In this document: in pieces, positions 31,201-61,494 of the stretch
Numbering within the stretch: position 1 is the stretch's first letter
Layout of the letters: every line of letters begins with the position of its first letter
NCBI GenBank assembly: GCA_017499595.2
Contig: CM039009.1
Span: forward strand, 124,001-188,000
Length of the DNA: 64,000 bases
Direction: 5' to 3'
DNA from: Psilocybe cubensis
Lineage: Eukaryota
Translations under genes and position numbers: made by a program
The notes under the pieces: model-generated
Told to the model about the DNA's origin: nothing
Seen by the model: only the letters and a program-made list of their open reading frames with translations
Database searches by the model: none

Positions 31201-31317
31201 GACTGGAAGAGCCTTCTCAAAAATAAGCCAGTCCGTGTTCTAAGGGAATCGGTGCGAGCTCGATCAGCGGCATTTGTCCATGAACATATCCCCGTAACCA
31301 GGAATCCTCGTAGATAG
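28209..31317 (+). CDS. Plavaka cargo gene 2: ~1000-aa protein of unknown function (3 exons)
   Basis: 850-aa ORF extendable upstream to acceptor 28270 (YYSPNC). RGRAALLMGGIVGRIA, and a last exon SWFPPPAVW..W..RNEYWYQTRL after an intron at ~30981-31030. The start codon is tentative. Confidence 0.75.
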
Positions 31318-31648
31318 GTAGCACATTTTTCTTGTTTCTTCATTCACGGATCTACACCACTACTCACAGTGTATTTTTGCCTTTGTACATACTACAAAAC
31401 AAATTTTATGTATACTATCTATATTTCTTCGTACAGACTATTGGTCAGATATCATGTATACCACGGAAAAAATTGTTTGGACCTGCATCGAAACATGTGT
31501 GAATCAATTCTGAGCCCAAAAAACATAAAAAAAACATGAGATTGCTTACAGTAAGCCGGTTAGGCCAATCAAAACTCCGCTAAGTTTTGAACTCCGACAC
31601 CGCGCCCTATCACGCCTGAGGTTGATGTCTGCACTCTCCTTATTCGCT

Positions 31649-31937
31649 CTACCCAGGCTCATTGCTCGGGTCAGAACGAATCGGTGGCTCGCTATCCAGG
31701 CTCATTGCCGGGATAAGAGCTTCCTATCCACTGTCCAGGCTCATTGCTAGGACAAGGATTTTCTACCCCCTATCCAGGCTCATTGCTGGGATAAGGGTGT
31801 CGTTCGCCTGCCCAGGCTCATTGCTTGGGCAAGGATATCCCCCCTATCCAGGCTCATTGCTGGGATAAGGGTATCGTTACTCTGCCCAGGCTCATTGCTT
31901 GGGCAAGGATTTTTTACTCCCTATCCAGGCTCATTGC
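31649..31937 (+). repeat. Array of 8 CCAGGCTCATTGC motifs upstream of the transposase ATG
   Basis: Eight exact 13-mers at ~35-43 bp spacing. Confidence 0.9.
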
Positions 31938-31968
31938 GTGGATAGTTGTACTTCAGCAGGCCGTAATT

Positions 31969-34900: not shown

Positions 34901-36137
34901 ACGTGTGGTACACCGCACTAGCCGTGTCGAGATGCGCAAGCTGCTGCGTGAGGACAGGGAGTTACTGGAGCCCACTCCTCCTGATTTACATTATCACATC
35001 TCATCAGACGTGCGTCGAAAGTTAGATATACTACCCTGGATGTCACAAAACCAAAACGATCCGGCGACAAGGGTAAGCCGGATTTTTCGCTTGTTTTTAT
35101 ATACTCAATGTCGTATTTAGGACTTTATGCTTCGTCTCAAAACTCACCTTTATGCCCGCTTATCAGGGGCAAACAAATTCAGTGATAGCATTGGTACCCA
35201 TGAGCGACTCCAAATCACAATACTCGGTGACCGAATTTACGAACATCAGGTTCTACGCATCAACTATACTTCGTATGATATGCGTCGAATACAAGATACC
35301 TTGAAGCCAAACTCTTCCCGATGTGACATCATGGTACTCGCTAGCAACAAAGGTGCAGATCAGCAGGTTCATCCTTATTGGTATGCCCGTATCATTGGAA
35401 TCTACCACGCCAATGTGGTAATATCTACCCCTGATGATTACTACCGTGCCTCCAAGCACAAAGTGGATTTTCTTCATGTCCGATGGCTGGGTGTTTGTGA
35501 AGATTGCCATTACGGTTGGAAATATAGAAGGCTTCCACAGTTGGCGTTTGGTGATATCAATGACTCTGCGTCGTTTGGTTTTGTGGACCCATCCCTCGTA
35601 CTTCGTGCAACCCATTTGATCCCTCGCTTCATTCTTGGAAAAATACCGACTCTCGGCCCATCTGTAGCTTATAGAAGCAAAGAAAATAATGAAGGGGAAG
35701 AATGGGAGAGATATTATGTCAATTTGTGAGTACATTTAGTCACTTCTTACCTTTTACTAATTTTTTACAGTTTTGTGGATCGCGACATGGTCATGCTGTA
35801 CAGAGGGGGTGGAGTTGGCCACGCTAGCACGCGAGCCGCTACCGATTCTCTTAGGCAAGACCCACGTGCAGACGACATTGCCTCTCGCAAAAAACGCCGC
35901 GAGGCACATGAAGCTCCCGATCCTGATCTGGAACCAGATGGGGCCTCAGACCAGGAGCAAGACGCTCAGGACCAGGCTGAAGTGGCACCTGAAAACAGCG
36001 CCGATTCTGATGACAATGAAGACGACAGCGACCAGCATACCAATTCTGAAGAGGAGGAGGAGGAGGAGGAGGAGGAGGAAAGCGACGAGGATGAGGACCG
36101 GGGTGACCTCGATGAACTCGGGTTCGCTGAATACTAA
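31969..36137 (+). CDS. Plavaka transposase, ~8 exons
   Basis: N-terminal Zn finger CLGC..H..KC. Then IFSDSTHLTSFG..WP..NQSKYTRGKP..HHIAYIP, DYPEK, CLCPRC, DFMH.VELGVWK, TYKLHSLPDY..FGTTD..STQMGESEH, HPYWYARIIGIYH and FGFVDP, with an acidic tail. Confidence 0.92.
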
Positions 36138-36357
36138 CTGTAGCTTTATGTGAGTCTGTCGTTGATTCTCTTGTACCTCTACTAACACCTTTTTAGATGT
36201 ATCCTTGTCTTGGCGAGTAATACACAATACTTTTCTTGATTTTCGCGTGATTCGGTAAGGAAATGTATTGATATTTAACTGAAATTTTATTGTAACATCC
36301 CTATACATCGCTGTACGCCCTTTGGGCTCTACTCTCTCATTGTGCAACTACGTATGT

Positions 36358-36469
36358 GTGCCTTACCCCCCTCACATCAACCCTCATACACCACCTTAGC
36401 TGCAGCCCGACACGTGCCTTACCCCCCTCACATCAACCCTCATACACCACCTTAGCTGCAGCCCGACAC
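36358..36469. repeat. Direct tandem duplication, 56 bp x2
   Basis: gtgccttacccccctcacatcaaccctcatacaccaccttagctgcagcccgacac occurs twice. Confidence 0.9.
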
Positions 36470-36552
36470 GATACCGCCCTTATATTTCAGCGATAAGGAC
36501 AGCACCGAGCATCGCCCCCCAACCCAGTTCCGCAGCCTATTTCGACCTGGAC

Positions 36553-36990
36553 GTGCCTGGCGCGCGCCACGCGTGTGCTGCGTATGCGTGCGCCACGCGT
36601 TTGAGGCGTATGCGTGCGCCACGCGTGTGCTGCGTATGCGCGCGCCACGCGTGTGTTGCGTATTGCGCGCGCCACGCGTTTGATGCGCGCGCCACGCGTT
36701 TGATGCGTATGCGCGCGCCGCGCGTTTGATGCGCGCGCCACGCGTTTGATGCGCGCGCCACGCGTTTGATGCGCGCACCACGCGTTTGATGCGCGCACCA
36801 CGCGTTTGATGCGCGCACCACGCGTTTGATGCGCGCACCACGCGTTTGATGCGCGCACCACGCGTTTGATGCGCGCACCACGCGTTTGATGCGCGCGCCA
36901 CGCGTGTGATGCGTATGCGCGCGCCACGCGTGTGTTGCGTATGCGCGCGCCACGCGTGTGTTGCGTATGCGCGCGCCACGCGTGTGCGTG
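36553..36990. repeat. CpG-rich minisatellite, ~20-26-bp unit gcgcgc(a/g)ccacgcgtttgat, ~20 copies
   Basis: Directly visible tandem array. Confidence 0.95.
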
Positions 36991-37118
36991 TTCGTCCAGA
37001 TACAAAGAGGCGTCGATACGGGGAGGGAGGGGTATACATGGATGTGTTTTGAAAAATAAAACTTGATTTCATTGTACACGCGTCACGGTAAACTCAGAGT
37101 GCCTGTCGAACGGGCCCT

Positions 37119-37637
37119 TTATTCCATCATCTCAACGTCCTGATCATCCCCCTCCCCATCGCGCATCTCGACGTCGCTGTCTTCGACGGTCCCCGAGTCC
37201 TCGATACGATTTTCGACTGCGACAACCTGTTCCTCCCACTCTCAAATTTCGCCGTGGGTCGAAACGACGGGTTCGGTGTCGACTCGCCCGGTCGTGGGCT
37301 CTTCTACGCTGACAACGATCTCGACCTTGTTGTCGGTATCGACGTTGACGCCGATTTTTGCGTGCCCGTTGCGGCCATCGACGGCGACGTTGAGCCTGAG
37401 GCCGTCGCGATCGATCGCGAGGCCGAATTGTACTCCTTGGGGTGCAAAAAAAAATTAACAGTGAGTACTTACTTTGAATATTGAAGACTCACCTTGCTCA
37501 TCCATTTGTCGTCTTCCGTTAACTCTTGTTATGCCGTTAGAAAGCTGTGGTGACTCGCTGGCGCGCTGTGGCGGGTTTGGTGGTGGTGGTGGTGGTGGTG
37601 GTGGTGGTGGTAGTTGAAAAGAAGCACGCGCCGCCAT
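37119..37637 (-). pseudogene. Plavaka cargo gene 4: small Pro-rich/acidic protein, 2 exons, premature stop
   Basis: MAARASFQLPPPP..DEQG | VQFGLAIDRDGLRLNVAVDG..HGEI*EWEEQ..VEMME*. In-frame TGA at 37242-37244. Confidence 0.5.
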
Positions 37638-39231
37638 CGTTGATGACTGCGGCGCGCTTTTCCACGCCCGTTTTGGTCATCGTCGTCGACGATGAGCTTG
37701 ATATCGACGAATTTTGAACGGATTAATGTAGTTATTACATGTATACGTAGAGAAATATAACGCTTACCGTGATTGGAACTTCGTTTGAGCGATCGTATGT
37801 TATATTTAACACACGCGCCGGGCCAAGACATACGGCCCCTATGTTGCCCGGTTATGTAATGTCCGGTCAACCGGACTTGTCGTAAACATACGAAAATTCT
37901 TACTTGATTTTGCAGGGTAAAACAAATAATTGTTTGCATATTGTAAAGCTAATAAAAATATTACTTAACATTGTAAACCGGGCCCCAAAATTTGGGTGCA
38001 TTTGTAAGACCAAAAATTTATTGTATTGGATTACATTGCTTTGTAATCTACTGTCTGTTTAGTTGATGGATATACAGCTGGATATATGTGTGCCGTGCCA
38101 GGAATCCCCAATCCTTCTTGGCCCATGCAGCTGAAGCATAATTACATACTATTGCATATGGGATGGTGAAAATACGAATGTGCACCAGATCACATAGAAG
38201 ATGGTGTGGAAGTTGAATCCAGGAGAAAGGAAGAAGTATTGATTTCTCGTGAAAATGAATTTTTGAAGAGATGAGGACCACTGTTGTGCAGCGGCTAGGG
38301 ATGTAGAAGAGATGATGATTGAGGCGCCTAGTACAATATACCCTCGAGTTGGTGTAAGGTTTACAAGCTCTGATGACTGGATGTAGGTGAAATTGACTCC
38401 CAATGTGTACGCAATTGCGTACCCGAGGGGCGCATCAAACGACGGAATGTCATTCGACACGTCACGATAAATGGGTAAGAATAAAACCTTCCCGCCGACA
38501 CAGCTAATAAAGATATATGCCGCCAAAGAGATGACTGAAAGTTCAATGCTCCTATTAAGTTGAGCTTGTGATGATGGGCGAATGAAACGCGTTAAAGCAG
38601 TGGTGATCGTATCAGGTGAGTGTTGCTTGCAAAAACGCATACCAAGGTGCAGACAATCCATCATCATGAGATAGGTGACATATACAACGGGGCCAGAGAG
38701 GTAAGGGTACACCCAACCGGAGTCAGGGCGTCCAAACACAGTGCTCCATAAAGAAGTGAGAATAATCACCTGTAGTGACTACTATTATGTATCATACCCC
38801 GGCAGTTTCCCAAGTGCCATGATATATCCTGGTGGGGAGTATCCCAACTGCCCAAGATGATGTATCAGAGGGTCTGTGGGGCGGTATAATCAGTGCCGGG
38901 GATAGTGATGGGTGCCGGGGGCATCAAAAAGCCAAACAACGCAGGAAATGGCCCCGCAGGGAAAATTTTTCAGTTTTATACACTCTCATGGGCATTTTGG
39001 CCACAAAAACTTGATAATTATATCTATAAATAAACCTACTACCTAATGCCGCCGTATGCGCTCAAATGTATGGGGAGGGCGGGGTGGATGGCTCTGGGGT
39101 CGTTTGGATGACGAGTTTTAAAATAGATGACTCCTCGCAACATGATGTCATTATGATTCCATCAGATTTGATTGCATCGGATGAAGTCCTATAAATAATT
39201 CATGACTATTATTGAATGACTAAAGTAAAAC

Positions 39232-40122
39232 CAAGGGGGTGCCGGTGTTCAAAATTCGGACACCACCTAGGTAGGTAGGTTGGCCGATCAGCCCCGAAAA
39301 AAAAAAAATGTACCATATTTTTTTTGTCTAATTTCTGAGGAATTTCATGGTCCAAAGTTGTCTGTAATCAAGTTTAGAGCATTTTGGACTGTATTTCATA
39401 GACAAATTATGTTTTTAAACAAACACAATGCCAATCTCGTTGAAATTCAGGTTAAAATCTTCATGATAGGTGGCCGGGCTTCAAACAACACAGATATTTG
39501 ACCTGATTTTGACTGAGATCATTGATTTACCGTCTGGACGCTGTCTCAAAGACATGGGTGTGCCACACATGTAAAGGGAGAAAAAGACATGGGTGTGCCA
39601 CACATGTACAGATATTTGACCGTCTGGACGCTGTCTCAAAGACATGGGTGTGCCACACATGTACAGATATTTGACCTGATTTTGACTGAGATCATTGATT
39701 TACCGTCTGGACGCTGTCTCAAAGACATGGGTGTGCTGTCTCAAAGACATGGGTGTGCCACACGGCACATACCCACAGTGTCCGGTGCAGGTTGCGATGC
39801 TCACTGCATGCCTCAGTGAAAGTCACCCAGCTCTGTGACCCAGGGCCAAATTTGCGCGGCAGGTCACAAAATGTCTGTGACCTGCGCCCAAGGAATGCCA
39901 CGGGGGTCTCCTTGTTCTATAACTACTTATTTACACTTTGACCTGTCCGATGTCGGGAAATTGAGTGAATTTTGATGAAGTTCAATGTCTTGGCCCTTGG
40001 CAATTCCCATTTTAGGCGATTTTGATCATTATGTAATGGTCACGAGGTAGGTAGGTTGCCCAAATTACCTCGAAATAAAAAATATGAGGTCGTGTTTTTT
40101 TTTGAACCCCGGCACCCCCTTG
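39232..40122. mobile_element. hAT-type MITE (891 bp) nested at the KDZ transposase stop codon
   Basis: TIR CAAGGGGGTGCCGG(t/g)GTTCAAAA. 8-bp TSD AGTAAAAC (39224-31 / 40123-30). Internal tandem repeats at ~39490-39762. Confidence 0.9.
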
Positions 40123-40129
40123 AGTAAAA

Positions 40130-43100
40130 CTACAGGGGCTCTTCCGTCTCATTCTCAAATTCTTCCTCCTCGTCTTCATCTGGAGGTACCTGATCAACCT
40201 GATCAACCTCATCTCCCTCATCGTCGTTGTCATCATCATCATCATTCTCTGTAATCTTGTCACTGAAAGGTGCTGCCCATAGCCTCTGAAAATGGTTTGC
40301 TAGAGATGTCTGGATTTCTGCTTGGGATTTCGCAAAGGCAGAGATTCCTTCTGCCAAATCCTTCCGAGTGCCTGGAAGCGCCGATTGCCGTTCTACCCAC
40401 CATGCCGACCTGTGCTTCAAGAACATTAACATTCTCCGCATTTCCTCCTTCAAAAGTAACACCTCCTCCTTGGCACGCATAACCCGAGCACGACTCTTCG
40501 CCCACTCTACTCGGAGAATGTTGTCATGGTCTTCTTCCGTTCGAACACCCACTGTAACCGTCCATATCCAAGATAATGTTCTTCGGGTCTGTCCTGTACC
40601 ATCTCTTCTATTCCTCTGCTGATTCACAAGGTCGATACTGTCATCTTCATCTACTTCAATGTTTGAGGGCTTGTGCCCATCTTCGTATATGCCTCGACGT
40701 CCTACATGAGGGCGTAATTGGTCTGGATCCTGGTATCCCCTCACATCCTTGTCCTCCAACACCTGGTATGTGTTTTCCCAATCACCTTCTCCTGCTAATG
40801 CCAGATGTGCAACTCGTGCAGACCGATACTTTGAGGCTGCAAAACGCGCTCGTACGTGGACACGATCAATTATTGTAGTCAATTGTGTGCCGTCCCGCTG
40901 TCCTCGGATGTTTTTGTTCTTGAAATCAATCATTCTGGATTTGATAATAAGAATTTGCCTGATCGAGGCCAGCGAATTGGACATCTGCGCAAAACGAAGC
41001 TCTTTCTCGATATTGGCGAGGCCAGGAGTACAGATGCGTGATTGAAACGGTTCAGGAATAAATGAGGGAAGATATAGAATGGCATCTTAAGCGTAGCTAA
41101 TCTTAGTCGTAATTGGATGATCTGCTTGATACTGTAGGATTCCTGGAATATAGACTGGCAATAGTTGCTCCCATGCCCGAATACGAGTTGCGAGAACATT
41201 TCGCTGTTCGGTCAAAGATCCTGCCTGCCGGATTGTTGATTGAGGTCCTACCCCCTTTGCCAGACGTCTAACACGTCGTCTATCACATCCTGTAAGCATA
41301 TGATCCTAGAGGTTGCAGAAAAACTTACTGGGCCTCTTCCAGCTCCAATCCAAGGGCGATAAAGATTGAAGATGTTGTGGCATGCGGGAATGAGCCACCC
41401 TGTGCCAAAAATTCGGCTTCCTTTTCTGCAAGATCTTTCTTGACCTGTGCCTCGCTCAATGCTAAACCACCCATGAGTATTGAAATTATTGGGAATTGAG
41501 AACGTGGAAGACTCACTTATACTTGGCATATAGTAGGGGTTTTTTTTCTTGTTCTTCGGAAACTCCTCTAATTCCCACTCAACACACATTTTCTCCCAAA
41601 CGTCTATCAGCTGGGGATTCTCCTTTTTTACAGATTCGGTCAGACCTCGATGCCCTTCCACCTGAGTGTTTCAATCTGCAACCGCCCGACGGTATCTTTT
41701 AAGTAGAGTTGTACCCATGGATGTGTACTTCAACCAATTCCAAAATCCAAAGTGGTCGTCAAGCGTGTCTTGTCTAGAACCAGGACCCATCGTTTTCGTC
41801 GCATTTCCAACAGCATTATGTGGGCCCCATACCCGTTCAGGGCATTCTCCATCGGATTGACCAGCCCCAGGGATAAGATTCAAAGAAAAGACGTCGTGGT
41901 TGGCATGGGATTGTTTATGCATCGATGCATGCAGTTTTGGGATTGCGGGCGTAAACTGCATGTCGGACGAAGGTTTAATTTCCGGTGGCCAATCTTCCTG
42001 CATTCTTTTCAGAAGGTTGAGGAACCACTGGCAGGCAATATCGTAGCTTGCGAGAATAGATATGACAGATAGCGCTTTCAGAATTGTCCCAAAGATATAA
42101 TCCATGTTGGCGTAACTATTATTATAGATTGTGAGTCAAGTAACCTGCAGTTGATAGCGTTAACATACCGTTCACCCTTATGAAGATTTCCAACTCCCAA
42201 AATCATTTCTGATCTGCCGCATACACCCATTCCCACTCCAGTATATCTCAGACCCTTTGAAAACTTGCTATTTGCCTTTGCAAGGGCCTGGAATCCCACA
42301 CAGGTACTGATCTATCTCAAATTGTTAGTCTTGTTCCTATGGTTTCTATGGGATGATATTCTTACGTCTTTCTCATTCGCTCTACTCTTTACATACTCCT
42401 CGTATTTTGTTCGGTGGATCATGTATGCGAGACCCAAGCCAAGCCCAGGATCCTGTGAATAATTTGATACCATTTGGTTTTTTAATCGGAAATTGGCGTC
42501 GAGACAAATCATTACAGTATATAAAAACCTAGCCAGCAGTCAGAAATATCATTCTATAAAGTTTAAATGACTTACTTCATGTTTTCCGGGGCATCTTTCC
42601 AGTCATTTGGCAAGTTAATGCCAGGGTGTGGACATGATGGACACTTTACCATCAACTCTCCAGGTAAAGTTCCTACAGCTCCTCGACTATCGTGGCCCCG
42701 CCCCGCCCACTTCAACATTTGCAAATGCCGCCACTGAAGTACCATTCTCATGAGTGCACGATAACGAGATTTTGGCACATCAATGCCCAGATTTGTTGTT
42801 GACTTCTCGAGACAGCGATAAAAATCATAAGTAGAGGCCTTTGTTGTGAGAGCGAGTCGGTGTAGATGGCGAAGAAGGTCAAATGTTGCACAGGTCTTTG
42901 TGGAAAGCTGTGATGCCGGATATATGCGTCGACGAAGAAGTTGGATATGTTGTGGAATCGCCCGTGAGCACCCACAATATTGAACTTTGCAGGAATGGAT
43001 GCCGTTTGTATGAAGTATCAACATTTTGGAGTGGCAGGCAATGGGATTGTCGCAGTATGCACCAGCATGGTTTAGCTGAATGACCAAACCTAGCTCCTTG

Positions 43101-43895
43101 AGTGAGATGTCCACAAAATTTGACCCGGTCCACCTCTGAAACAAAGAAAAAAAATTAATTGTCATATCAGAATAGGAATGCATAAGTACGTACTTCGATT
43201 CGATGGAATAGATTAAGCCTGTGTCGTCTAACGCAACATTCACAACACGTAAGATCGGGCGACAAGCACTCCCTACATCTGTGCTCTGCTTGGCCTGGTA
43301 TTTCTTCTTCTCGAGCAACACAATCTGGACATGATGTAAGATGGCGAAAATCGCCCCGACCCGACCACCGGATAATCTCGTCGAGGTATGTCTGTCGATG
43401 CAACGTATACCATACCACATTCGGATGTTTCTAGATATATACAATAAACATTGGTTAGTGTAAATTCAAAATGATATACATTGCTTTTAGTCTTACTGAA
43501 ACAAGACTTCGTTTCGCCTTATTCCGGGAAGCAGTAGTGTTGTTGTTGTTGTTAACCGTCACAGTTGGCGTTGACTGAGGCCCAGAACCCTGATTCCCAC
43601 TTTCTGTACCATCCGCCATTTCCTCCTCGTCCTCGTTGTTCATGAAATCGCCTTCAACAGCGAGGTCATAGCCAACACCATCCGGCATCAAAGCATATGT
43701 GTTGTCATCTTGAGGCGCCCAAGAGGTTTCATCGTCCCATGCCCCAGCCGATAGAACGGTAGCATAATATAACCTGCCCCCCATAGTGCCCTCGCTCGAC
43801 CAAATTGTTGTGAAGGTGTCCGGTAATGGTATTGGGTCCCGATATATTTCTGCCAAGCTTGCTTCCCCGGCTCGGCGTCTTTTGCGTGCATTCAT
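40130..43895 (-). pseudogene. KDZ transposase with CxC2 domain, multi-exon, two in-frame stops
   Basis: HTNGIH..V.YCGC, QLLRRRIYPAS..TCATF, CPSCPHPGINLP, DANFRLK, KGERY, SYDIACQW, IPKLH, DGECPERVW, GPGSRQDTLDDHFGFWNW, and RVEWAKSRAR..EEV.LL.EEMRR. Stops: TGA at 41671-73 and TAA at 41087-89. Confidence 0.92.
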
Positions 43896-44350
43896 AATAG
43901 CACAATATAGCGGGCCCTGGCGACCCCTGGCGACCCTCGCGATGTTGTGATTTGCGTGATATTGAGGCGGTTAATACCACCTTTAAGCTTTTTAACGAGT
44001 GATTCAAATTAAGTGATAACCCAAATCAGACTTAAAAAAAGCGCATTACGTCACGTGGCTCGACGTGTACCGCGTGACTCAATCAACAATTTGATTATGT
44101 CCATTGTTCAATGTGCTGCAATTCAACTTCGATGATCTAATAGGTATCAAACCAAGGTGTGTGCTGCAGTACCAATCCCCCACTATTCAAACCATTTCAA
44201 CACCCCAGTGGCTTAGGAATATTCGAGCCCGGACATACACTGAGCCACTGGGTCTGTTCTCCCATTTCTGTTTCTACTCCCCTTCCTTGCCGCTGTTGTT
44301 CTACCCATTGTTCACCATTTCAAATATCACACAGGTCTTCCTTTCTGATC

Positions 44351-45966
44351 ATGATGTCTACGACTCTTACTCTGCCTACCAACTTCTCGGCTGCGGTGGC
44401 TTTGGAGCAATGGGCAAACTTGTATAGTCATGCAGATAGCCTGTTCAGCCTTTCACCGCTCACATCACCAGAGCATACTCCGCCTTCATCCCCTATTCTT
44501 CCTTCTAATGTTGATCTCCAATCGCATGGCAGAATCACATCCGACGCGTTTGTCAACGATGGCTGTCAGTTGAATCCGTCACCATTGCCAGTACCACTTT
44601 TTCCACACTCCTCGCCTTCATGTGTTCCTGCAGTACAACCCCAACCATCATTGCCGGCGAGGGCCTCAGGGAACGTCTCCACGATGGAGGGTCCATCCTC
44701 CAACCCCAAGCTGCCAGTAAAAGACGCAAAGAAATCCAAACCGCCCCATCGCGCAGCTCGCCAGCATGCTGCTGCAAATGCTGCTCGAGCGCATCAACGA
44801 GACAAGGCCAAAGGCGGGCAAATCCTTGAGCCAGCTGTTCGTGAAGCCCCTCATCGGAAATATGTCAAGGGAGCAAAACAAATCAACACCACATTTGTAA
44901 CAGAATCCGCACGCGTTGCTCGAACAGGCTTCATCGGAATCAACGACCGCTCCAGATCAAAGAGGGTGTACCATCTAGAGGAGGTTACAGGAGTCAATTC
45001 AGAGCTCCAGTTCAAGCTTGTCAAGTGGGATGGAAGGTATGCAAATGTTTCATTACCCTTTTTTGTACTGAAAGAAAATTCATAGACAACCGATGTTCAT
45101 CTCGGACTCAGATGGACGCGCTCTCGTTATTCTGGCGGGATATCCGGAGGACCAGGGCTGGCCTATCCTCATGGAACTAGCTGCAGACTCCCTGGAGGTG
45201 GCACGAAGCCGTTTTGTCCCGCCCAAGTCCGAGAATCGTCGAGGAACGTTCGACTCTCTACACTGCGGTGTCTCCTTCGGCGGCGGTCAAACTTCGCCCT
45301 CCAATCTTCGGAACGAGAAGGTCAACAAGGTGATATTGGAATGGCTCTGCAACCTCGAACCCTTCAAGCGGTTGGCAGGATTTGCCTCATGTACGTTTTG
45401 ACATTATTTTGTTTAACCATACTGATCATTCTAATTTTACAGCTGCTATGCACACCTGGGCTAACGATCTATTCTGTGCATATGCAGAAAATCTGAAAGA
45501 ACTCCACAAAGACCCTGAGCTGAAGCGTGTCTTCCCCAACAGTATCTTTTCCGCGGCTACATTCAACATGGGACCTTGTACAGTATGCACTAAGCACAAG
45601 GACTTCTCCAACTTGCCATACGGATACTGCGCGGTGACTGCACTTGGCGATTTTGATCCAAGGCAGGGGGGTCATCTTATACTCTGGGAGTTAGGACTTG
45701 TTGTTGAGTTTCCCCCCGGATCTACGATTTTGCTTCCCTCCGCGCTGATATCCCATTCTAACACCGCCATCTCCCAGCATGAGAAACGCTACTCCTTTAC
45801 CCAATACACCGCAGGAGGTCTTTTCCGTTGGGTGGCTCACGGATGCAGAACAAAGGACAAATATCTGGCTACCCTCACTCCGGACCGCCTTGCATCGTAT
45901 GTTCAAGAGGAGTCAGTAAGATGGGTAAAAGGTTTGAAACTCATACCTATTGTTCATGGCATGTAG
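44351..45966 (+). CDS. TET: TET/JBP-family 2-oxoglutarate/Fe(II) dioxygenase (fungal transposon-linked type), 3 exons
   Basis: Introns 45037-45085 and 45391-45442. Motifs RRGTF..GVSFGGGQ..P.NL, HKDFSN (HxD), GGHLILWELGLVVEFPPGSTILLPSA..HSN (distal His) and RYSFTQY (2OG-binding Arg). No stops seen. Confidence 0.92.
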
Positions 45967-46730
45967 GAACGTTAATACATTGTAATTATGGTACACAGTT
46001 GACATATCATCATGAAATAAATGCTATATCAAGATTTTTGGGTTGGGATGCAGTGATTCTCGCCAAACCAGACATTAACATTACCACAATATTGTGTTAA
46101 AATTTAGTCCCGTGTATGCTTAAGTACATTAGAATGAAAGGTACATATATCTAGTATATCGATCTCATTAAAAAATTCCGTGAAAGAAAGCAATGTATGT
46201 GTAGTATCTCAAACACTCTCTTTTTGTGCGGTGATTCACGAAAACGCTTGTGCGGCTGTCCAAAAAAGAATGGTTAATAACAAAAGCATTTTCAATCCTC
46301 TGGTTTGGAAATTTCACCTATTGAAAGGTATAATTCTCCTTAGCAACATACCCAAAAATTTTGTGGAACACTTATGTGCATAATATGGGAGTCTCTTAAT
46401 CTCTCCGTACATTGACCCATCAAACATCGTTGTATGGTGTTGGCCTTCCGACCAAAAACATGCAACAAACTCCATTTTATTCCGGCCAATTTGACCCAAA
46501 ATCTTTTCAAAATTTTATTCTACGATTAATACAGAACCCATATGTGCAACTAATTATGGTCCCGATGCACTGAGTGATTGTTGAATGCAATCTCAAAAGT
46601 CGACAACTCGAGCTGACTTTGGGTATTTCCATTTTGGTACTGACCTCTATATTTAGCAACCAATCAAAATACTCACTGACCCGCTTGGCTTTTTTTTTGT
46701 TAGGCCGAGAACGTACACTTTGTGCACTCT

Positions 46731-46944
46731 CACCGCTGGCGCTCATATATATTTTCAAAGAAAATAAGACCCAGTAATTATGTTTCCTACATTTTTTTGA
46801 CGTATTTTATTGGAATATAGGCTTCGGGCTTCCCTAATTGGGTAACCCCGGACTCTATATACGAGAAAAATACGTCAAAAACCAACAGGAAACATAATTA
46901 CCAATACATATTTTTCTATCAAATATGTATCAGCGCCAGCAGTG
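46731..46944 (-). mobile_element. CMC/CACTA-type MITE, 214 bp (copy 1)
   Basis: TIR CAC(C/T)GCTGGCGCT. 3-bp TSD TCT. Near-identical inverted copy at 60939-61152. Confidence 0.92.
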
Positions 46945-47104
46945 TCTGTCCTCCTCTATGGCCCGTAAATACATCCATTTTAAATCTAACCCCGACCGCG
47001 ACTACGAGTTGGCAAGAAGGAAAAACTCTTATTATCTGTAAGTAATACGTATATTCAGATTACTCCGGTGACAGCTTTTTGATTCCTCTGGTCAAACAGA
47101 AACC

Positions 47105-47534
47105 ATGAGGAAGAAAAGCGAAAAGGATGTGAAAGAAAACGACGTCAGAAGTAAGTAGCTTAAGTCTATGTATAGCATCAGGATATAGAAAGTTTATGAT
47201 ATTTGATTATACATTGAAGGGATCGTTTGTCTCCTGAAGCAGTAGAAGCAGCCAAAGAAAGACATCGAGAAGCTCAGAGGCGCTATCATGAAACACATCG
47301 CCACAGAATTAATGAAAGGGCTAGATTCCTTCGGTATGTACTGTATTGCTTCTCTCTTGATAATTTTCGAAAGAGTGAACAAAATCTTTGCTAGTTTTTT
47401 TCGAAAACAGAAGGCTGAGGAGGAACAAAAGTTACAAAGCAGAATCAAGGTAAGATGCTTAACAGTTATACTTGACTTGAATGTGCTAATACGTAATGGT
47501 TGTCAATTTCTGTTTGCAGAAGTTGAATATGTAG
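47105..47534 (+). CDS. Small basic helical protein, KDZ cargo (4 short exons)
   Basis: Spliced MRKKSEKDVKENDVR..AKERHREAQRRYHETHRHRINERARF..RKQKAEEEQK. Canonical splice sites. Confidence 0.5.
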
Positions 47535-47684
47535 AGTCAGATCCAAGTCAGATCTCGATTGTTGAAAAAACACAATGTAATTTTTCACAAAAGAACAAAG
47601 CTCTGAGGCAACGGTTGAGTCGGCGTAAAACGTTTGATTATTGTAGCTACTACATGATGTTGTAAACTACAAGAGCATATTAAA

Positions 47685-48826
47685 TTAGTGCGCACAATGG
47701 CCCCTTTTCCCCTTGCAATTGGGGCAAGATGAAATCAACCTGTGGTTTTCAAGGCGTTGGGATTTCCTTGGCTCCGGAGTTGCTGAGGTTGATGCGGTGG
47801 GTGGACCCTCTACAGCCTTTTGCTTGCCTTTGAGGCGAGCAGAGTATTGGCAGGTCTGGACACTGATTGATTCCGGCAGGCCAGAGGTGTCGCTGTTGTC
47901 ATCGCTATCGACATCGCCCAAGTCAATGATGTCGGGGGAGTGCTGACGCCCTTGAGCAGAAGGAATGGTCGCCACGCCTTCAGAATCAATTCTTGCTAAG
48001 GCTGGCTGTTGCGAACGGCGTCCAACGCGAATTCTGGTTGAGGCAGCAGAGAGTTTGCCGACATATGGCCACCGGGTGTACACTGTGTCTGGAAGACGTT
48101 GAAGTCGGGTTGAAGGTGCATTTTTGTAGTCGGCAGACCACGATTGCGCAGGGACAAGCTGCAAAGCACCAGCCAGTCGGTGTTCGTCAAGGAAATTGTT
48201 GAAGACGTCCTTCGGCACGCTGAGTACGTGTTCAACTATAAAATCGCTGATGGCGTGTTTAAGCACAATATATGAAACATTAAATCACTCAAGACTCACA
48301 TTGCCATCCTCAACATATTCTCAATAGGCCCCCAAACTACCACCAGCACTGGAATGATTCGCCTTGGCCTTTATGGACCGTTCAGATGAGGGGGTTGGAT
48401 AAAATGGACATCCCCAGCCTCTTGACGAGACATCAAAAACTCCTCTAGGTCTCTTTTGGCCAGGGGAAGCAGAGTATCAACGCCAATAGAGCTATGATCA
48501 AATGAAAAAAAGGTTGAGCCATATGCAACAATAATAAACAAGAAAACTTACCGGTACTCGTTAATGATAACATGTAGTGGGGCTCTCACAATTAACACAA
48601 AGACGTTTGGCTGGTCATTGAGGAATTGAAGGTAGCCTGGATTATGTGATCGCCGATGAAAGGCGAGCTCTGGATTCATCCCGAAAGCGCCTTGGATGGA
48701 GAAAAGAGGGAGGAAAGCAACAACGGTCCCAAAAATGTATGGCTCTCGGAGTCGGGGGTTAAAAAAAAGAGGGCCATCGGAAGGTTCTTGACGCTGATAG
48801 GCTGGTAATGGCGGGTAATGTATCAT
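47685..48826 (-). CDS. Hypothetical KDZ cargo protein (3 exons) ending in a CxxC..HCxH cluster
   Basis: ORFs 48548-48901 and 47685-48266 are linkable through GT..AG introns. C-terminus CPNCKGKRGHCAH. Confidence 0.55.
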
Positions 48827-48986
48827 ACTTTTTCCGGCCAAGATAACAGGAGTACATACATTTTGGATTTGAATACTAAGGATCAACCATAGCATTAACA
48901 ACCTTTCTGTCGGTATAGCAGTAGGTAAGAGCCTTGAAAAACTTTTTAAACCGAAAACTCACTGGTATTATAAACCTAGATATAAT

Positions 48987-51381
48987 ATGCCCAATCCTGG
49001 CGGTTTTCAAGGCCTACAAAAGGCTTTTTTACTGGAGCAAAAGCCGTTGTATGAAAAAGCTGTCGAACAGCAACTAGTTTCTGAAACACTTGCCGATATC
49101 AGCCGTCGATTTTTAAAAAGGTTACCGCTGGATAAGCCTGAGAGCTGGGAGCCTACTGAAGATGAGTTAGCAGCCATCAATGACGATGAAGCAGAAGAAG
49201 AAATTCCTTGCCGCAACCCCGAAACACTTTCACCGGCAGAAAAGGAGATTGCAGAGAAGCAGAAAAAAGAGAGACAACAACTCCTCCAGACCTTTCGTGG
49301 CGTACGTCGCTTCCCATTTGGGTCACTTGATTAATTGACAGGCTGACGTCACGACGCCACTTTTTCATTTAGAAAATTAAGCGTTGGTTTAGATACCAAT
49401 ACAAGCAAGATCATAAGACTCAGGCTCGCAATGCATCATCGGCTAGCAGTGATAGCAAAAATCTTTTCACACTGCTCCTCCAACAGCTTGTAGGCAAAGA
49501 GCCTAATCGCCCAAGGTTGAAGACTCCAGTGAACATATGGAGAAAGGAGAAAGCCAATCGCGATTCTATTGAGGCCGAGATTGAAGCAATGGACCCACCA
49601 GTTCCTGTCAATTTACTAGTTAAGACCCGGGACGAGATTGCAAGACGCCTTTTTCAGGAGTTGACTTTGGAAGAGAAAAAGAAATGGACAAAGATTGCCT
49701 CAGATGAGCATAGCGCCGCAATAGCAAAGTATAACGCCGACATTGATATCAGTGGGGATCTATTGACTCCGGAAGAACGTCAGCGGTGCGGCTTTTTTTT
49801 AATTTTGAATTCCTATCTTTCTAACGGTTTTCTTAATCTGATATAGTGCTATCGAGGGAATTGGTCCTTTCATGTCTCCAATCTTAGACGCGCTCTGCAA
49901 TATCACTGGGTGGAAGTGCACATTTATAGCTGGTGGGCCTGAACCTGCAAATGGGGGGATGTTGGGTACTATTAGGTTTGTGTTTCTTTTTTATACAATC
50001 TCTAGTTCTGATTTCCTCTTCGGTATAACAGTGTTCATTCAGGAGTTACGTCTGGAGATATTAAAATGAACTTTGGCCGCGCAGAGCAAGCTAAATACAA
50101 GAACATTTTTATTCCGATCTTCGGTGATTTTCTTCGAAAATGCTACTGTAAGTTATATACTTTATTCTTGAACTAATTCCGCTTAAGCGTTGTATAGCAA
50201 AAAGCACTTGTCAAGAGTGGGCATTGCCGCAAGATCATGGCCAAACCCCAATGTTTGCTTCGGAAGCCTTCAGGAGCGAAGAGGAGTCAATTCAGGCCAT
50301 TCCGATTAATGAATCTCATGTCACTGCGGCTTCCGTACCCAAAAAGAAGAAGAAGAACAGAAAGAAAACGACTGCGTCTCCCAATTTGCGTCAGACCACT
50401 ACTCCAACTACACCTCCAGAATTTCCTGTGGCTGATAAAGATGTTTCTCTTAATTCCAACTTGCTAAATCATGAAAAGGGTCATAATCCCTTTCCCGAAG
50501 ACTGGCCGTACATTATGGAAGATGAGGACAACAACTCCGGATACGAAAGCAACAATGCCGACGATTTAAGCCAAGCATCACCTACCTCTGTGCCACCATC
50601 GCCATCTCTCTCTGTGCCACCATCCCCTTCCCTCTCTACGCCACCATCTCCTTCCCTCTCTGTAGTACATCAAGACCAACAAAACTCTACGACAACAAAT
50701 AGGACAGTGTCAACGGCGACTCCGAACCCTACAGTTGACAAAGTAGTCACGGTATCTTCATCGGATGCAACTACGACCTCACCAACGCTAAATCCACCCA
50801 GCGGCCTGCCACCTCGCGCAAACCACCCATCTGTGGCAGTAGCAGACCCGGCCCACGCCACGTCTATGCCTAGTACAGCAGCAAAGAACACGCCCAATAC
50901 AATTTCAACAAACACGGTGTCGGAACCTGGTGCCTGCAAGACGTCCTCAAAGCGTAAAGGAGAATTGAAGTCAAAAAATCCCCGCAAAAAGCGCAAGGCT
51001 AATAGGTGAGTATGCAACTCAAATTCAATACAAAGCCATGTCTAATTAATCATTCCGTTTGCCACACTTAGTACTCAATCAAGGTTGACTACAGGTACTT
51101 CAACATCTGCATCTGCATCAGCATCAGCATCAGCACCGGCACCAGCAACAGCACCAGCACCTGCTCGCAGCCAACGCCTGACACGAAGCACCGCTCCTAC
51201 AGCCGCTCCTGCGCAAGCAAAGTGAGTCTTTATATGGACATTTTGGAGAACATTGCTTATATCTTTTTATTACCTTTCGAAAAGATTGCCGCCGGTGCCA
51301 ACATCTTCGGTTGTCCTCACCCGAAACGGTAAACCCGTCAAGAGCTCTAAGTTCTGGGTATATGCGGAAGATGATAGCTAA
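48987..51381 (+). CDS. KDZ-associated HMG-box-like protein with Ser/Thr/Pro-rich tail, multi-exon
   Basis: MPNPGGFQG..FL; PRLKTPVNIWRKE..ARRLFQELTLEEKKKWTKIA (HMG-like); TGWKCTFIAGGPEPANGG..SVHSG; ends KFWVYAEDDS*. Confidence 0.7.
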
Positions 51382-51812
51382 ACTTATGCTGCGCAGCCAA
51401 AATCATATAGCGTCCGGGTAGTATACTTCTATTAGCTGCTCTATTTTACAAATGTCATCTTTATAATACAATCATACGAATTCTATTTAAGGTTCTTTGA
51501 ATTTACATGAAGCATAGTATCATAAGAATTTGCAATACGGACTTCGAAACATCAAGTTAGCGTCGAAATTAAATCCACGCGGCAGAAAAATATGAACATT
51601 GGGGAGTCGATCTCTCACCTTGCCAACCTCATACAATGATACATGACACGATACCCACTCGACGAAACGACTGTATAATTTGTACTATCTTGTGAGTACC
51701 CTACAGATTTCAGGATCCAGTATTAATCAGTTAAAAAATGAACGTCCCGGCGCTGTCTCGAACGCGGGGTGTACGCTGATATAGAAGTAGACACATTCCA
51801 ACCACACTATAC

Positions 51813-54107
51813 CACCTGTAGTCGCACCCTGAAGTCTTCATACCCTGGCAGTTGCCAGGTGTATGGGAAGTATCTACGCTGGCAACTGCCAGGTGCCACA
51901 ATTGAAGTCTTCAGCTGAGCGATGGTCAATACGACCAAACAAATCCCAAACACGGTGAGCGGGGCCCCGTCGGGGGCGAAAAATGGCTTTGCTCGTTGTT
52001 CGGCGCGGCCGTTTGGGGCGGGAAAAAATACGTCGGGGTCGGCTCGATGAGCAGACCGCATCGGCGTTGTTTGCGCGACGTTATGGACAGCGGGCGGGGT
52101 GGATGGGGCGGGGCGACGTTGGATGACGCTCGCATTATTTCTGGGTGATTTCCCGATTCGGGTAATAGATCATTGATGTACTGATGTAATCAAATTGATC
52201 ATCACCATCAATCCATCACGCCGCGGCCATCGATTCAGCCAGCGCATGCACCGTGCGCGCTGCGCGCGTTGAAAATGCGCACTGCTCGTTGGCCTGTAGG
52301 TCTTTCGCGCAGACGCTTTGTTATGAAACATAATATTACTAATAGAGGGACGTCCTGCGACGCCGTATGCTCACCAAATCAAACAAATGAGATATCTAAA
52401 GGATTACAATGCATTATGCAACACATAGTATCTTTACATGTTTCTACATAGTTGATGGACATGGCACATATTTTGAGTGACTATGGATTAGAAAATATAG
52501 TAGTAAGATGATCAATACATGAGTAATTTGGTAATACTCGTCAAATACAGTTCATGTAATGGCTTTTGATGAATATTGCTACTGTTATATCCACTGGCAC
52601 TTGTTGTGCCCTTCCTGTGCCACTCTGGATGCTATATTTGTTTGTATGTTGTTAAGAAAGTTTGACAATTATTGCTATATATGTAGATTCTTATGCACGA
52701 CTGTAAAGGATCGGAAAGCTTGCTCGAGAACACTTTATTATCTCAATATCTAAAAATAGCCACATTTCCGGACGCTCTTTCCACGTCAATTCCAACAGTA
52801 AATATTCAATTGGGAAACATCTTCATGCTGAAGTTGCAAATAAAATTATTGCTAAAATAATGTAAAATCATTCTATATCCAAATATACCGTGAAAAAAAA
52901 ATGGATGCCTCAAAAGGTGTGCTTCAGGCTCGGAAGGTCGACCTCAGAAACTACTAAATCCATAAATTCATCCAACAAGATCACCTTGTAGGATATTACA
53001 ACACACGGTATAAAGTGTATATATTTCAATTCATTTTTAAACCAGCTACATGTTGGTATCTTTTTTTTGATGTAATCTTCAGAATTGCGTTCAGAATTGC
53101 AAAATTACATAGAAAATTTTGAATCCGAGATCACCAAATTAGATTCCGGCACTGTATACGTGCTAAATATTGAGTGAGACAGCAAATATAACACTGTTTT
53201 TGTTTATACTTCCAAGATGAATACTCTGTAGAATAGGTTGGTTACTCATATGCCCTTTTATTTGATCTCGAGTTCATCAGAATGTGAAAATAATCAGTGA
53301 CCCCTTCTTTTTTGCATCATTGATACTGGCAAAGTAGCAGCAATCCCATTTTACATTAGATATTCTTACTATATATTGCTATATATGATCACATAAACGA
53401 GATACAGGCCTCTAGTGACATTAGTAGCCTATAGGTTGAGCTAAATAAGTTGTCTACTCTGTGCTTCTGCCAGTCAAGGTATCATACCACTGTTTTCCCA
53501 AGCCTACTCAAGGTAATTACCACAGCAGACTGACTGAACTCTACAAATGTGGGTCAATATTACCACTCACCACTGTTGCATGCCTGTATAGGTAACCTCT
53601 ATGCTTTATCTGCTCTGCAAGAGCGCCGGGATAACGAGCAGTGCGCATTTTCAACGCGCGCGCGCGCACGGTGCATGCGCTGGCTGAATCGATGGCCGCG
53701 GCGTGATGGATTGATGGTGATGATCAATTTGATTACATCAATACATCAATGATCTGCAACCCGAATCGGGAAATCACCCAGAAATAATGCGAGCGTCATC
53801 CAACGTCGCCCCGCCCCATCCACCCCGCCCGCTGTCCATAACGTCGCGCAAACAATGCCGACGTGGTCTGCTCATCAAACCTACCCCGACGCATTTTTTC
53901 CCGCCCCAAACGGCCGCCCGAACAACGAGCTACGCCATTTTTCGCGCCCGGCGGGGCCCCGCTCACCGTGTTTGGGATTTGTTTGGTTGTATTGACCATC
54001 GCCCAGCTGAAGACTTCAAATGTGGCACCTGGCAGTTGCCAGCGTAGATACTTCCCATACACCTGGCAACTGCCAGGTATGAAGGCTTCAACTAGCAGCT
54101 AAGGCTG
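51813..54107. mobile_element. Non-autonomous KDZ-family derivative (2,295 bp) with ~455-bp inverted arms, nested in the large KDZ element
   Basis: Same termini CACCTGTAGT..GGCTG. 7-bp TSD ACTATAC (51806-12 / 54108-14). Arms ~51830-52290 and ~53632-54090 surround an AT-rich spacer. Confidence 0.88.
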
Positions 54108-56511
54108 ACTATACTGGACTGGATACACAGGTTATAAGGAGGGTACAGGTCAATCTTATACCTTCATTCACCGAGTATTCACCGGCGCTATCAATGCATC
54201 GCCTAATCTCGTTATGATGTCAGTGAGCCTATTTTTAAATCGTCATCCAACTAGCCTCAAATGCATCCACCCCGCCACCCCCACATTGATGTGCGCAAAC
54301 GGCGGTTTTAGATGTAGACATATTAATAGATTATTTCGGCGTCCTTTTCTCGCCAAAACGCCTACAGAACAGTGCAAAATCCCCAAAATTTCCCCTGCGG
54401 GGCCGCCTGCTGCATTGTCTGGTTGGGATCAACCGGCAAGGCTTCGGCACTGATTATACCGCCCACAGACCCTCTGATACATCACCTTGGGCAGTTGGGA
54501 CACTCCCCACCAGGATGTATCATGGCACTTGGGAAACTGCCGGGGTATGATACATAAATATAGCTTACATGGCTGGAATAATGAACAGTAGGCGGTGTCC
54601 AATGACAGTGTATATCCAGGCAGGAAATCCAATCTTGACCATCCTCTTTACAAAAAATTGCCAATCAGTCGACGAAGATGACCCAAGCGCCAATGTTGCC
54701 GAGTATCCAGAGACAAAGAAGAAGAGCGCCCATAGAGCGGACTTGTTGATATTGATAAAGATATGGGTAGAAAGATTCGTCTGGGCGCATTCTACCGCTA
54801 CATGGTGGCAGATGAGCAGAATTGTGAGTGAAGCACGAAGGTTATCGACATATTGTATCCGTGTTGGCCTCGCCAGTCCGAGGAGTGGAAGAACTTCTCC
54901 ATGACTGCCCATTGTTTTGAACGCTGAATGTCTGAGGAAGGGAAACGGTTCAATTTCAGTTATTGTGTACAGTGGGACGAGACGATTCACGCACTGGTCT
55001 ACAGTAACAAGTAGCTGGGTAAATCTCAAATGCAACACCGTATCCTCAAGATAAACGCTCTCTTTCCACAGATCATCCCGCTTACCACGGGCGCAGCAAA
55101 GTGAGACTAAAAAAAACCAATCAGACGACATACCGTATGGGTTACTTATTTTCGGTTTCGTGTAGGCTTCAAAATACGCATTTTTGGTAAATTCAGAGGA
55201 TGCTTCTACCTTTTTAAGGTATTGAAAGATTTCTCACGAAAATAAAGGAAAGTGTCGGAAGACTGCAGCAAGGAGATTCGTATTGACCTTGCAAGACGAG
55301 AGGTCGGGGAGAAATTTGGGGCGGCAAGCTAGCCTCGCGAGCCAGGCCTTCTGTGAATCTCGTCTCTTTTCTAGATAAGGCAGGTACCGAGTGATATGTT
55401 TGTACAAATGTTGCCTTTATTTATGTCGTCAAACATTGATCGGAGTGCGAAAAGAGAGATATTCACAGAAGGCCTGGGACAAACGGTTCGGATTTGAGGG
55501 AATCCTCGTTTTGTGACTCGGACTTAGTGAAAAAAACGCGATTTGCCTCAACAACAACCTTCCACAACTTAAAAAAAAGTTGTCTACAGATTCATTTAGA
55601 TAGGTTTCTTTTATAATGAAATTCATTTTTACAAGGTCACGAAAAAAAAAAATTTTGAGAAAAAAATGACTTGTAATTTGAGCCGAAAAATCATATATCA
55701 TGGCGCAGGTGAACTGCTGGCGGTTAATGAACCCAGTCTCTGCAGATGAAACACACAATGAAAGAGACATACCTGCACATCCCACCTCCATCAAAAGTGA
55801 ACCTCTGGATACCCAGATTGTCCCAAATGCAGTCTCTACATCCTCTGTAGATTCAAATCATGCTTCAGCTTCAGACAGTATGGGCGAGTCTAGCATGCAG
55901 GGTTTGACCTTGACATGGATCTTGAGGAAATAGAGGAGGAGTACGATGTTATTGAGGATTCAGAGGATTCAGAATTCGAGGGGGAGGGGGACGGGTAGTG
56001 GTCGCAATCGACGTAGTTGTTCGAATTTCACCAAGTCCGACGTGACAAAGCGTGACTCTGCCAAAACCGAACCGTTTGGCCCAGCCGTTTCTGACGAAAC
56101 CGAGCGGAGCTCGAAATATGCTGAGTCAGAAACGACTGGTGTACGAGCCTAGCGGCAAGCGGCGAAGCTTTGGAGTTTCATTTCTCCGCCGCATATCCGG
56201 CAGCCATCGGCAGGCTTTAACGTGGGATAGGTGCGGCATATATGATTAAAAGCAATCTCTAGGCAGTCAGCTTCTGTCAAATCCAATATTTTTGCCAACA
56301 ACACGCTTAGATCAAGATTGAAAGTGGATATACATAATATCTAAGCTTCAAGAAAAAAGTAAGCATGCTACTGTACTTGATGTTGACCGTTATTTTTTTT
56401 TCGACAATATTACTGAAGGAAATTCGAGAGAAAAGATTGAAAGACAACGCTCGGGCACCACGCGCATCATCCGCAGAGTATAGCTATCCATTGTACAACA
56501 GACCAACTAAT

Positions 56512-60923: not shown

Positions 60924-60938
60924 TTTGTTCCATCCTTA

Positions 60939-61152
60939 CACTGCTGGCGCTGATACATATTTGATAGAAAAATATGTATCGGTAATTATGTTTCCTGTTG
61001 GTTTTCGACGTATTTTTCTTGTATATAGAGTCCGGGGTTACCCAATTAGGGAAGCCCGAAGCCTATATTCCAATAAAATACGTCAAAAAAATGTAGGAAA
61101 CATAATTACTGGGTCTTATTTTCTTTGAAAATATGTATGAGCGCCAGCGGTG
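60939..61152 (+). mobile_element. CMC/CACTA-type MITE, 214 bp (copy 2)
   Basis: Same TIRs as 46731-46944, with its own 3-bp TSD TTA. Confidence 0.92.
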
Positions 61153-61494
61153 TTAGTCAAATTTTTGTTTCAAAATAAACTTGTGTTCTCGTCCTCATTC
61201 TTTTTGTCTTAATTTGTAAGTTTGACTTGCGGATGAGCGTGGGAATATCCTGCGTACAGTGTACGCAGAATATTCCCACGGTCAACCTCTCCCGATATTC
61301 AGCCGAGTGTGGGAATATTCTGCGTACACTGTACGCAGGATTCTCCCATGGGGTGCCAACTAACACCTTCAGATAATTTCTGTCATGAAAATGACTTGAC
61401 AAATTATTCCTTGTTATTTACAATGTTCACGCAAATGGATTGATTGTTCATTCAGCACATTTATGATATCCTTGTCTTTCTATGTACATATGTA

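Follow-up and report, generated by a model that had tools for sequence, protein, structure and literature searches.

The window, the 64-kb stretch of Psilocybe cubensis DNA analysed in this study, holds a large transposon that splits a host gene and itself contains a second, non-coding element. The features that bear on their identity are listed here, with target-site duplications abbreviated as TSDs.

38767-54575, + strand: outer Kyakuja-type KDZ transposon, 15,809 bp, 5'-CACCTGTAGT...GGCTG-3'
38760-38766: GAATAAT, left copy of the 7-bp TSD of the outer element
54576-54582: GAATAAT, right copy of the 7-bp TSD of the outer element
38767-38784, + strand: left tip of the outer element, 18 nt, mirrored at the right end only through a gapped CA-CC-TGTA match
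54558-54575, + strand: right tip of the outer element, 18 nt, ...TACATGGCTG; its reverse complement reads CAGCCATGTA...
38785-38880: left inset inverted-repeat arm of the outer element, 96 nt, 97% identical to the right arm
54462-54557: right inset inverted-repeat arm of the outer element, pairing with 38785-38880
within 38785-38880: TCATACCCCGGCAGTT (GGCAGTT at 38801-38807) and, separately, AACTGCC at 38846-38852, both in the left outer arm
39078-39113, + strand: conserved block GGCGGGGTGGATG ... TTGGATGACG on the left side of the outer element, 312-347 nt from the left end
54241-54276, - strand: the same conserved block, GGCGGGGTGGATG ... TTGGATGACG, in the right outer arm, 300-335 nt from the right end
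40130-43895, - strand: transposase gene with CxC2 zinc cluster and KDZ catalytic domain, with several short introns
45334-45966, + strand: main exon of a putative TET/JBP-like 2OG-Fe(II) dioxygenase gene, divergent from the transposase gene
51813-54107, + strand: nested non-autonomous Kyakuja-type element, 2,295 bp, non-coding, starting CACCTGTAGT and ending GGCTG
51806-51812: ACTATAC, left copy of the 7-bp TSD of the nested element
54108-54114: ACTATAC, right copy of the 7-bp TSD of the nested element
51830-52290: left inverted arm of the nested element, containing GGCAGTTGCC..GGCAACTGCC, GGCGGGGTGGATG (52093-52105) and TTGGATGACG (52119-52128)
53633-54090: right inverted arm of the nested element
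54577-54912, - strand: upstream exon of a host acyltransferase-family gene, split by the outer element; the exon resumes at 38766-38170

The boundaries of the outer element are fixed by three independent lines of evidence, namely an empty site, a split host homologue and a continuous host reading frame. Four public sequencing runs from the same or closely related strains (X2, X6, X8 and X10) were mapped on positions 37800-55800, and a joint leading from 38759 directly to 54576 was found in three of them, on one 11,973-nt contig in X6, on one 1,645-nt contig in X8, and in 37 raw reads with 25 start places in X10. The joint skips 15,816 bases, the 15,809 of the element plus 7, and 6-7 letters at the junction fit either side. 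These empty alleles lack exactly 38760-54575, and so bear out the ends and the GAATAAT duplication that the original prediction had assigned to the outer element. The unique interior of the element has a read depth of 0 in both X6 and X8, against about 1 in X10. Run X2 carries the insertion, with an interior contig depth of 26-28 against 42-51 in the flanks; it also yields an empty-form contig whose shorter side measures only 24 letters for a threshold of 31, a weak bridge that we did not count. The X2 data suggest that the insertion is present in one of two nuclei, and the outer element is polymorphic between strains.

The host gene leads to the same boundaries. The beginning of an Acyl_transf_3 / HGSNAT_cat domain (Pfam) is encoded by ORF 54568-55233 on the minus strand, and by tblastn an uninterrupted homologue of 397 aa (P0001) spans the insertion site, with residues 1-112 aligning to 54912-54577 and residues 111-308 to 38766-38170. 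Two residues of P0001 are therefore read twice, exactly as a 7-bp duplication within an exon predicts. The host frame is unbroken, in that 55233-54576 amounts to 219 codons and one base and resumption at 38759 is correct. The outer element is inserted into a coding exon of the acyltransferase gene.

Within these boundaries, both hallmarks of the KDZ superfamily, the PF18758 domain and an N-terminal CxC cluster, are found above their Pfam cut-offs. The CxC2 cluster (PF18803) scores E 1.9e-36 and 124.9 bits (cut-off 27), and the KDZ domain (PF18758) on ORF 41671-42135 of the minus strand scores E 8.4e-29 and 101.3 bits (cut-off 26.6), with the N-terminal half of the latter domain in upstream exons, as aligned to P0003. 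The closest relatives among the matches listed are Psilocybe proteins with 97%, 87% and 75% identity; all 120 of 120 relatives among these matches are Agaricomycete proteins carrying both the CxC2 and the KDZ domain, and a relative from Laccaria amethystina is 58% identical. The outer copy's own transposase is broken by two in-exon stop codons, a TGA at 41671-41673 where P0003 has R and a TAA at 41087-41089 where it has E, which appear as 'RRAVAD*NTQ' and 'ISYA*DAIL' when P0003 (Psilocybe cubensis, 1,038 aa) is aligned by tblastn. Because the X2 contig over the transposase gene differs from the window at one base only, faulty assembly of the window does not account for the stops, and this copy would yield a truncated product of 648 aa at best.

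The dioxygenase encoded beside the transposase may be TET/JBP-like. Its match to Pfam Tet_JBP (E 1.1e-5, 25.2 bits) lies below the 34.9 cut-off, nine of 30 homologues match the same family at E of 0.01 or less, and residues H88, D90, H141 and R152 (HxD...H...R) are invariant. Neither the ORF nor its alignment gave a sequence match among solved structures, and the AlphaFold2 model has a mean pLDDT of 51.9. In Galerina and Pholiota, gene numbers place members of the dioxygenase family beside CxC2-KDZ genes.

The outer and the nested element share 10/10 bases of the left tip and 5/5 bases of the right tip at unrelated insertion sites. In both, the last 17-18 nt at one end do not mirror those at the other, and long inverted repeats follow immediately behind them; a repeat finder starts the outer arms 18 nt, and the nested arms (461 nt, 95.2% identity) 17 nt, inside each end. 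This agrees with the earlier warning that TIR-finders mis-call these ends: because the arms are called 17-18 nt short of where the elements really end, software that relies on TIRs would overlook the ends as well as the duplication. The tips had also been called asymmetric; along their 17-18 nt the left tip does differ from the right one, but the two are not wholly unrelated, as with one gap CA-CCTGTAG can be aligned to CAGCCT-TAG or CAGCCATGTA. Each of the features read from the sequence in the original prediction (tips, TSDs, inset identity and motifs) is present where it was placed.

Behind the tips, the palindromic GGCAGTT..AACTGCC and the GGCGGGGTGGATG..TTGGATGACG block, both previously described as common to the arms, recur in all four arms, the former as TCATACC-YGGCAGTT and AACTGCC (4/4 each). 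The 64-kb window contains four matches to GGCGGGGTGGATG, one per arm, where 0.09 would be expected by chance, and five matches to TTGGATGACG, four of them within arms, where 0.16 would be expected. The distances of the motifs from the ends match across all four ends (70-79, 279-312 and 305-338 nt). Their conservation at set distances in two families with arms that cannot otherwise be aligned makes the motifs plausible candidates for transposase-binding sites.

The nested element, separated from the outer element's right end by 468 nt, was correctly delimited at the outset, as its tips are flanked by perfect ACTATAC copies at 51806-51812 and 54108-54114. It had also been taken for a derivative of the outer element; this is ruled out for a deletion derivative, as the arms of the two elements are only about 49-50% identical in a MAFFT alignment, blastn between them found zero similarity, and only the tips and short motif islands are held in common. 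The longest ATG-initiated ORF is 86 aa, and three ORFs tested gave no Pfam match. The family is multi-copy in the species: raw-read depth in X10 is about 90-270 over the nested element against about 26-34 in single-copy flanks (about 5-9 times single copy), the family is present in strains without the outer element, and at the right end the contigs of other copies diverge exactly at 54107/54108 (five contigs in X2, three in X6 and three in X8, or 11 contigs in three runs). With no coding capacity, end motifs shared with an element of autonomous type and a copy number above that of the latter, the nested element has the properties of a non-autonomous, MITE-like partner, and this is the pattern expected of a separate, different non-autonomous family that would rely on a related transposase. 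Without three nested insertions, the outer element measures about 12.4 kb.

Two other readings of these elements have to be weighed. Repeat finding alone yields arms 17-18 nt inside the proposed ends, and one could take the arms for the true ends and the tips and 7-bp flanking repeats for host sequence that matches by chance. We give this reading next to no credence: the segment absent from the empty alleles of X6, X8 and X10 includes the tips, which refutes the arms as true ends of the outer element, and the same 10 left-tip and 5 right-tip bases would hardly recur at unrelated sites. Chance matching was also assessed on 122 pairs of CACCTGTA and GGCTG within 20 kb of each other, in the window plus 80 related loci; three of the 122 have 7-bp flanks matching with at most one mismatch where 0.16 would be expected, and two of these three are the outer and nested elements, both with perfect flanks. 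The nested element encodes nothing and is classifiable by its ends alone, and hAT7 families with 7-bp TSDs are known from rust fungi according to the accessible part of a recent survey (Kojima 2025, PMC12730594, section 3.1.2); it might then belong to another superfamily with 7-bp TSDs, such as hAT7, and resemble the outer element by coincidence. That it has in common with the KDZ-encoding outer element a 10-nt left tip, a 5-nt right tip and four distance-matched motif islands, including a 13-mer (GGCGGGGTGGATG) absent elsewhere in the 64 kb, makes such a coincidence very improbable. A hAT domain was matched neither in 12 scanned ORFs of the outer element nor in six further ORFs. Both elements are, in our assessment, very probably DNA transposons of cut-and-paste type that belong to the Kyakuja group within the KDZ superfamily, the outer one of autonomous type and the inner one a non-coding member of a different family; the placement in Kyakuja would follow from TSD length, termini and domain set.

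In the literature available to us, Kyakuja ends are characterised only by Kojima (Biology 2025, PMC12730594), whose accessible part describes 7-bp TSDs, 5'-CA..TG-3' termini and no TIRs, states the 7-bp TSD for Kyakuja-1_LB and Kyakuja-2_LB (section 3.2.1), covers 30-odd further families from Agaricomycetes, and names five orders of Agaricomycotina in which such elements occur together with a TET/JBP gene. The combination of 7-bp TSD, CA..TG termini and no TIR at the tips is therefore already published for Kyakuja, as of December 2025. Clean duplications are found at only two insertions in the window; both are perfect 7-mers, and both elements have 5'-CA..TG-3' termini. Judged by these features, the window elements fit the published Kyakuja signature and differ from Dileera and Zisupton. 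The likeness to the Kyakuja elements of the accessible text extends from the TSD, the termini and the lack of an inverted repeat at the very tips to a size of 12-20 kb, a KDZ transposase with a dioxygenase that may be of TET/JBP type, and an agaric host. Unlike them, the window elements come from a genus, Psilocybe, that is absent with its family from the paper's table as available; they have inverted repeats of 96-461 nt that start 17-18 nt inside the ends, of which the accessible text makes no mention; and they include a non-autonomous partner family, whereas the main text in its available form uses the term 'non-autonomous' once, in another context.

The published consensus sequences allow the tips themselves to be compared. 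Among the 36 Kyakuja consensus starts visible in Table S1 of PMC12730594, for which the first 400 nt of each consensus were used, 23 begin with CAC, 10 with GAGCCC/GACCCC, two with CAG and one with CGC. The left tip of the window, CACCTGTAGTGAC, and the right tip read inward, CAGCCATGTAAGC, represent the same two end types; the left tip resembles the starts of Kyakuja-1_LB and -1_AuPo (CACATATGACAGTGAC and CACATAATGCAGTGAC), and the right tip, with the reverse complement CAGCCATGTAAGCTAT, resembles the start of Kyakuja-1_PhPo (GAGCCCATGTCATAGC). Set against known KDZ entries, here those of Table S1, the predicted signature thus matches in its two end types, but none of the visible consensus starts has exactly the window tips. 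Tip asymmetry is a trait of the whole Kyakuja group, visible in these published data and undiscussed in the accessible text of PMC12730594.

Other KDZ groups provide a poorer match. Zisupton and Dileera make 8-bp TSDs according to the available part of Kojima 2025 (PMC12730594), and for the Dileera-clade elements KDZ1-3 of Cryptococcus neoformans the accessible parts of two reports give 8-bp (4-8-bp) TSDs and TIRs of 139-241 bp (10.1101/2024.08.15.608186; 10.1101/2025.05.19.654958). As described there, KDZ1, KDZ2, KDZ3 and Zisupton are like the window elements in belonging to the PF18758 superfamily with an N-terminal CxC zinc cluster, in being large (9-11 kb) with extra genes, and in having been seen to insert into genes. 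They are unlike them in their 8-bp TSDs, true TIRs and CxC1 cluster, where the window has 7 bp at both insertions, inset repeats behind tips that are not inverted, and CxC2. The Chlamydomonas element Tcr1 is classed as Kyakuja in one paper, as far as its text is accessible, and a literature search for the ends of Tcr1 found no details.

An alignment of 16 CxC2-KDZ proteins was also used to look for relatives of the transposase in metagenome contigs; it recovered 208 relatives, and 80 loci were retained. Of the 23 loci of at least 9 kb, 11 carry inverted repeats on either side of the transposase gene at a spacing of 10.7-13.4 kb, so that repeats of the inset or terminal kind are common in the CxC2-KDZ clade. 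Most inverted-repeat arms in the 80 loci are cut by contig ends, where the tips are unreadable, and only two loci, L046 and L064, contain both ends and flanks. L046 is 12,999 bp long, starts CACCTGTAT / CACCTGTATATGC and ends CTAAGGCTG, with unlike tips of 21 nt and arms that total about 840 nt at 99% identity; its flanks, CCCATCT and CTCATCT, agree at 6 of 7 positions, and shifting the ends would allow a duplication of 8 bp to be read. In L064, whose tips are CACCACTAGCAGG / CAGCCATAGCTGC, the flanks have no repeat of at least 6 bp. A further set of eight left-type and six right-type ends was picked by motif and aligned (alignment A3), so that conservation within the motif is uninformative; outside it, these ends share GCTAC in columns 11-15 and ATGTATCAATAC in columns 21-32, and they are true homologous ends. 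In L030, L056 and the window, the end found about 1 kb downstream of the transposase gene is of the left type, whereas in L046 the end on that side is of the right type. The pattern TCATACC-N1-2-GGCAGTT-N28-40-AACTGCC occurred in none of the loci of the metagenome scan, a left-tip expression of the Laccaria/Auricularia consensus form (CAC..AGTGAC) gave no plausible end in the 80 loci except the window control, and shared alignment end-points between the 80 loci gave no clear boundaries.

These observations suggest how such elements might move. From what is generally known of DDE/RNase H-fold transposases, the Kyakuja transposase would cut its target with a 7-bp stagger, and it would presumably join CA-3' ends to the target. 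It may recognise the ends by way of the inset motifs TCATACC-YGGCAGTT, AACTGCC and GGCGGGGTGGATG..TTGGATGACG, with the CxC2 cluster as the likely DNA-reading part of the enzyme. Related transposases encoded elsewhere in the genome would mobilise the non-coding family in trans, and the nested element seems to keep only what such an enzyme would need to recognise, its tips and a small number of short motifs at set distances from the ends. In the CACTA/En-Spm and Ac/Ds elements, likewise, short motifs lie behind the tips in both orientations and are retained in non-autonomous relatives, and the two ends are unequal; those elements differ in belonging to other transposase superfamilies, in having 3-bp and 8-bp TSDs, and in that their tips carry short, perfect TIRs.

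Whether the two tip types matter to the enzyme is a separate matter. One possibility, which we raise tentatively and would not call probable, is that Kyakuja ends are functionally of two kinds, CAC... and (C/G)AGCC..., which may have been kept apart across the Agaricomycetes for a very long time while set-back sites position the transposase. If so, a transposing element would have to pair one kind of end with the other, as Mu, Tn7 and P elements do, and this would explain why TIR-based tools miss the group. We know of no earlier proposal of two functionally different ends for any KDZ element. The difference between the left and right tips could instead be functionless drift in a degenerate TIR, with the enzyme needing only CA/TG ends and inset repeats, a reading consistent with the one-gap alignment of CA-CCTGTAG and CAGCCT-TAG and with the simple description of the group as lacking TIRs in the accessible part of Kojima (PMC12730594). 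Drift would not, however, preserve two distinct forms and is therefore disfavoured, and we find it doubtful: both tip types recur in the outer and nested elements, whose arms are only about 49-50% identical, both recur in the metagenome families L046, L033, L030, L056 and L072, where the ends were motif-picked, and the published starts visible in Table S1 split likewise, with 23 CAC and 10 GAGCCC/GACCCC of 36. That two forms persist in many families speaks for functionally distinct ends, a reading that remains tentative.

Altogether, the window adds a Kyakuja family from Psilocybe, a genus absent from the accessible part of PMC12730594, and provides a cleanly bounded Kyakuja insertion with empty-site support, together with a non-autonomous partner family. 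Further additions to the description of the group are inset inverted repeats with motifs at fixed distances, the same tips in metagenome relatives, and an insertion polymorphism between strains. For annotation, it is of consequence that inverted repeats in the Kyakuja group start 17-21 nt inside the ends, and therefore tools that expect a TIR next to the TSD call wrong boundaries and report no duplication. We know of no biochemistry on end recognition by KDZ transposases, and the recurrence of two tip types raises a testable question about how these enzymes recognise the ends of their elements.

The 64-kb window is transposon-rich. Beyond the Kyakuja element, the outer KDZ transposon that interrupts a host acyltransferase-family gene, and the non-coding Kyakuja-type insert nested in it, we identified the following features.

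2-5113 (-): open Ty3/gypsy-type polyprotein frame, 1,704 aa, with gag, protease, reverse transcriptase and RNase H
24539-38068: Plavaka-type transposon, 13.5 kb, termini CATCA...TGATG, 2-bp flank repeat GA
31795-33390 (+): Plavaka PF18759 ORF within that transposon
39232-40122: non-coding element, 891 bp, terminal inverted repeats CAAGGGGGTGCCGG
39224-39231 and 40123-40130: 8-bp duplication AGTAAAAC of the 891-bp element
46731-46944 and 60938-61154: palindromic miniature element, 214 bp, two copies
47685-48284 (-): ORF in the Kyakuja element
48873-49334 (+): ORF in the Kyakuja element
49373-49846 (+): ORF in the Kyakuja element
50152-51009 (+): ORF in the Kyakuja element

The Ty3/gypsy-type frame extends past the window start. 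The Plavaka-type transposon splits the acyltransferase gene a second time, further downstream; residues 310-345 of the uninterrupted homologue P0001 align at 38167-38060, and residues 342-394 match 24539-24381. The transposon's termini agree with those described for PlavakaB in Kojima 2025 (PMC12730594). At 38069, contigs of the public sequencing runs X6 and X8 pass into dissimilar sequence, suggesting that this insertion, too, is absent from both, and 293 raw reads of run X10 have loose ends behind 38068.

Within the Kyakuja element, the 891-bp insert is a hAT-like miniature element, multi-copy by read depth, that immediately follows the transposase stop codon. Its position is nearly symmetrical to that of the Kyakuja-type insert, 465 nt from the left end versus 468 nt from the right. 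The 214-bp element, with ends CAC(C/T)GCTGGCGC...GCGCCAGC(A/G)GTG and 3-bp duplications (TCT, TTA), is CACTA/EnSpm-like, and in both X6 and X10 it is bordered by loose ends on either side. The four ORFs (153-285 aa, spanning 47685-51009), none of which has a Pfam match, are possible extra cargo genes.

In the 3.7-kb metagenome contig L033, a Kyakuja transposase gene lies between two outward-facing Kyakuja ends, one right-type and the other left-type.

L033:1-127 and L033:3487-3716: Kyakuja ends

The most plausible reading is that one miniature Kyakuja element has inserted on each side of the transposase gene and that the assembly breaks off within both. Autonomous elements may commonly carry nested non-autonomous copies.
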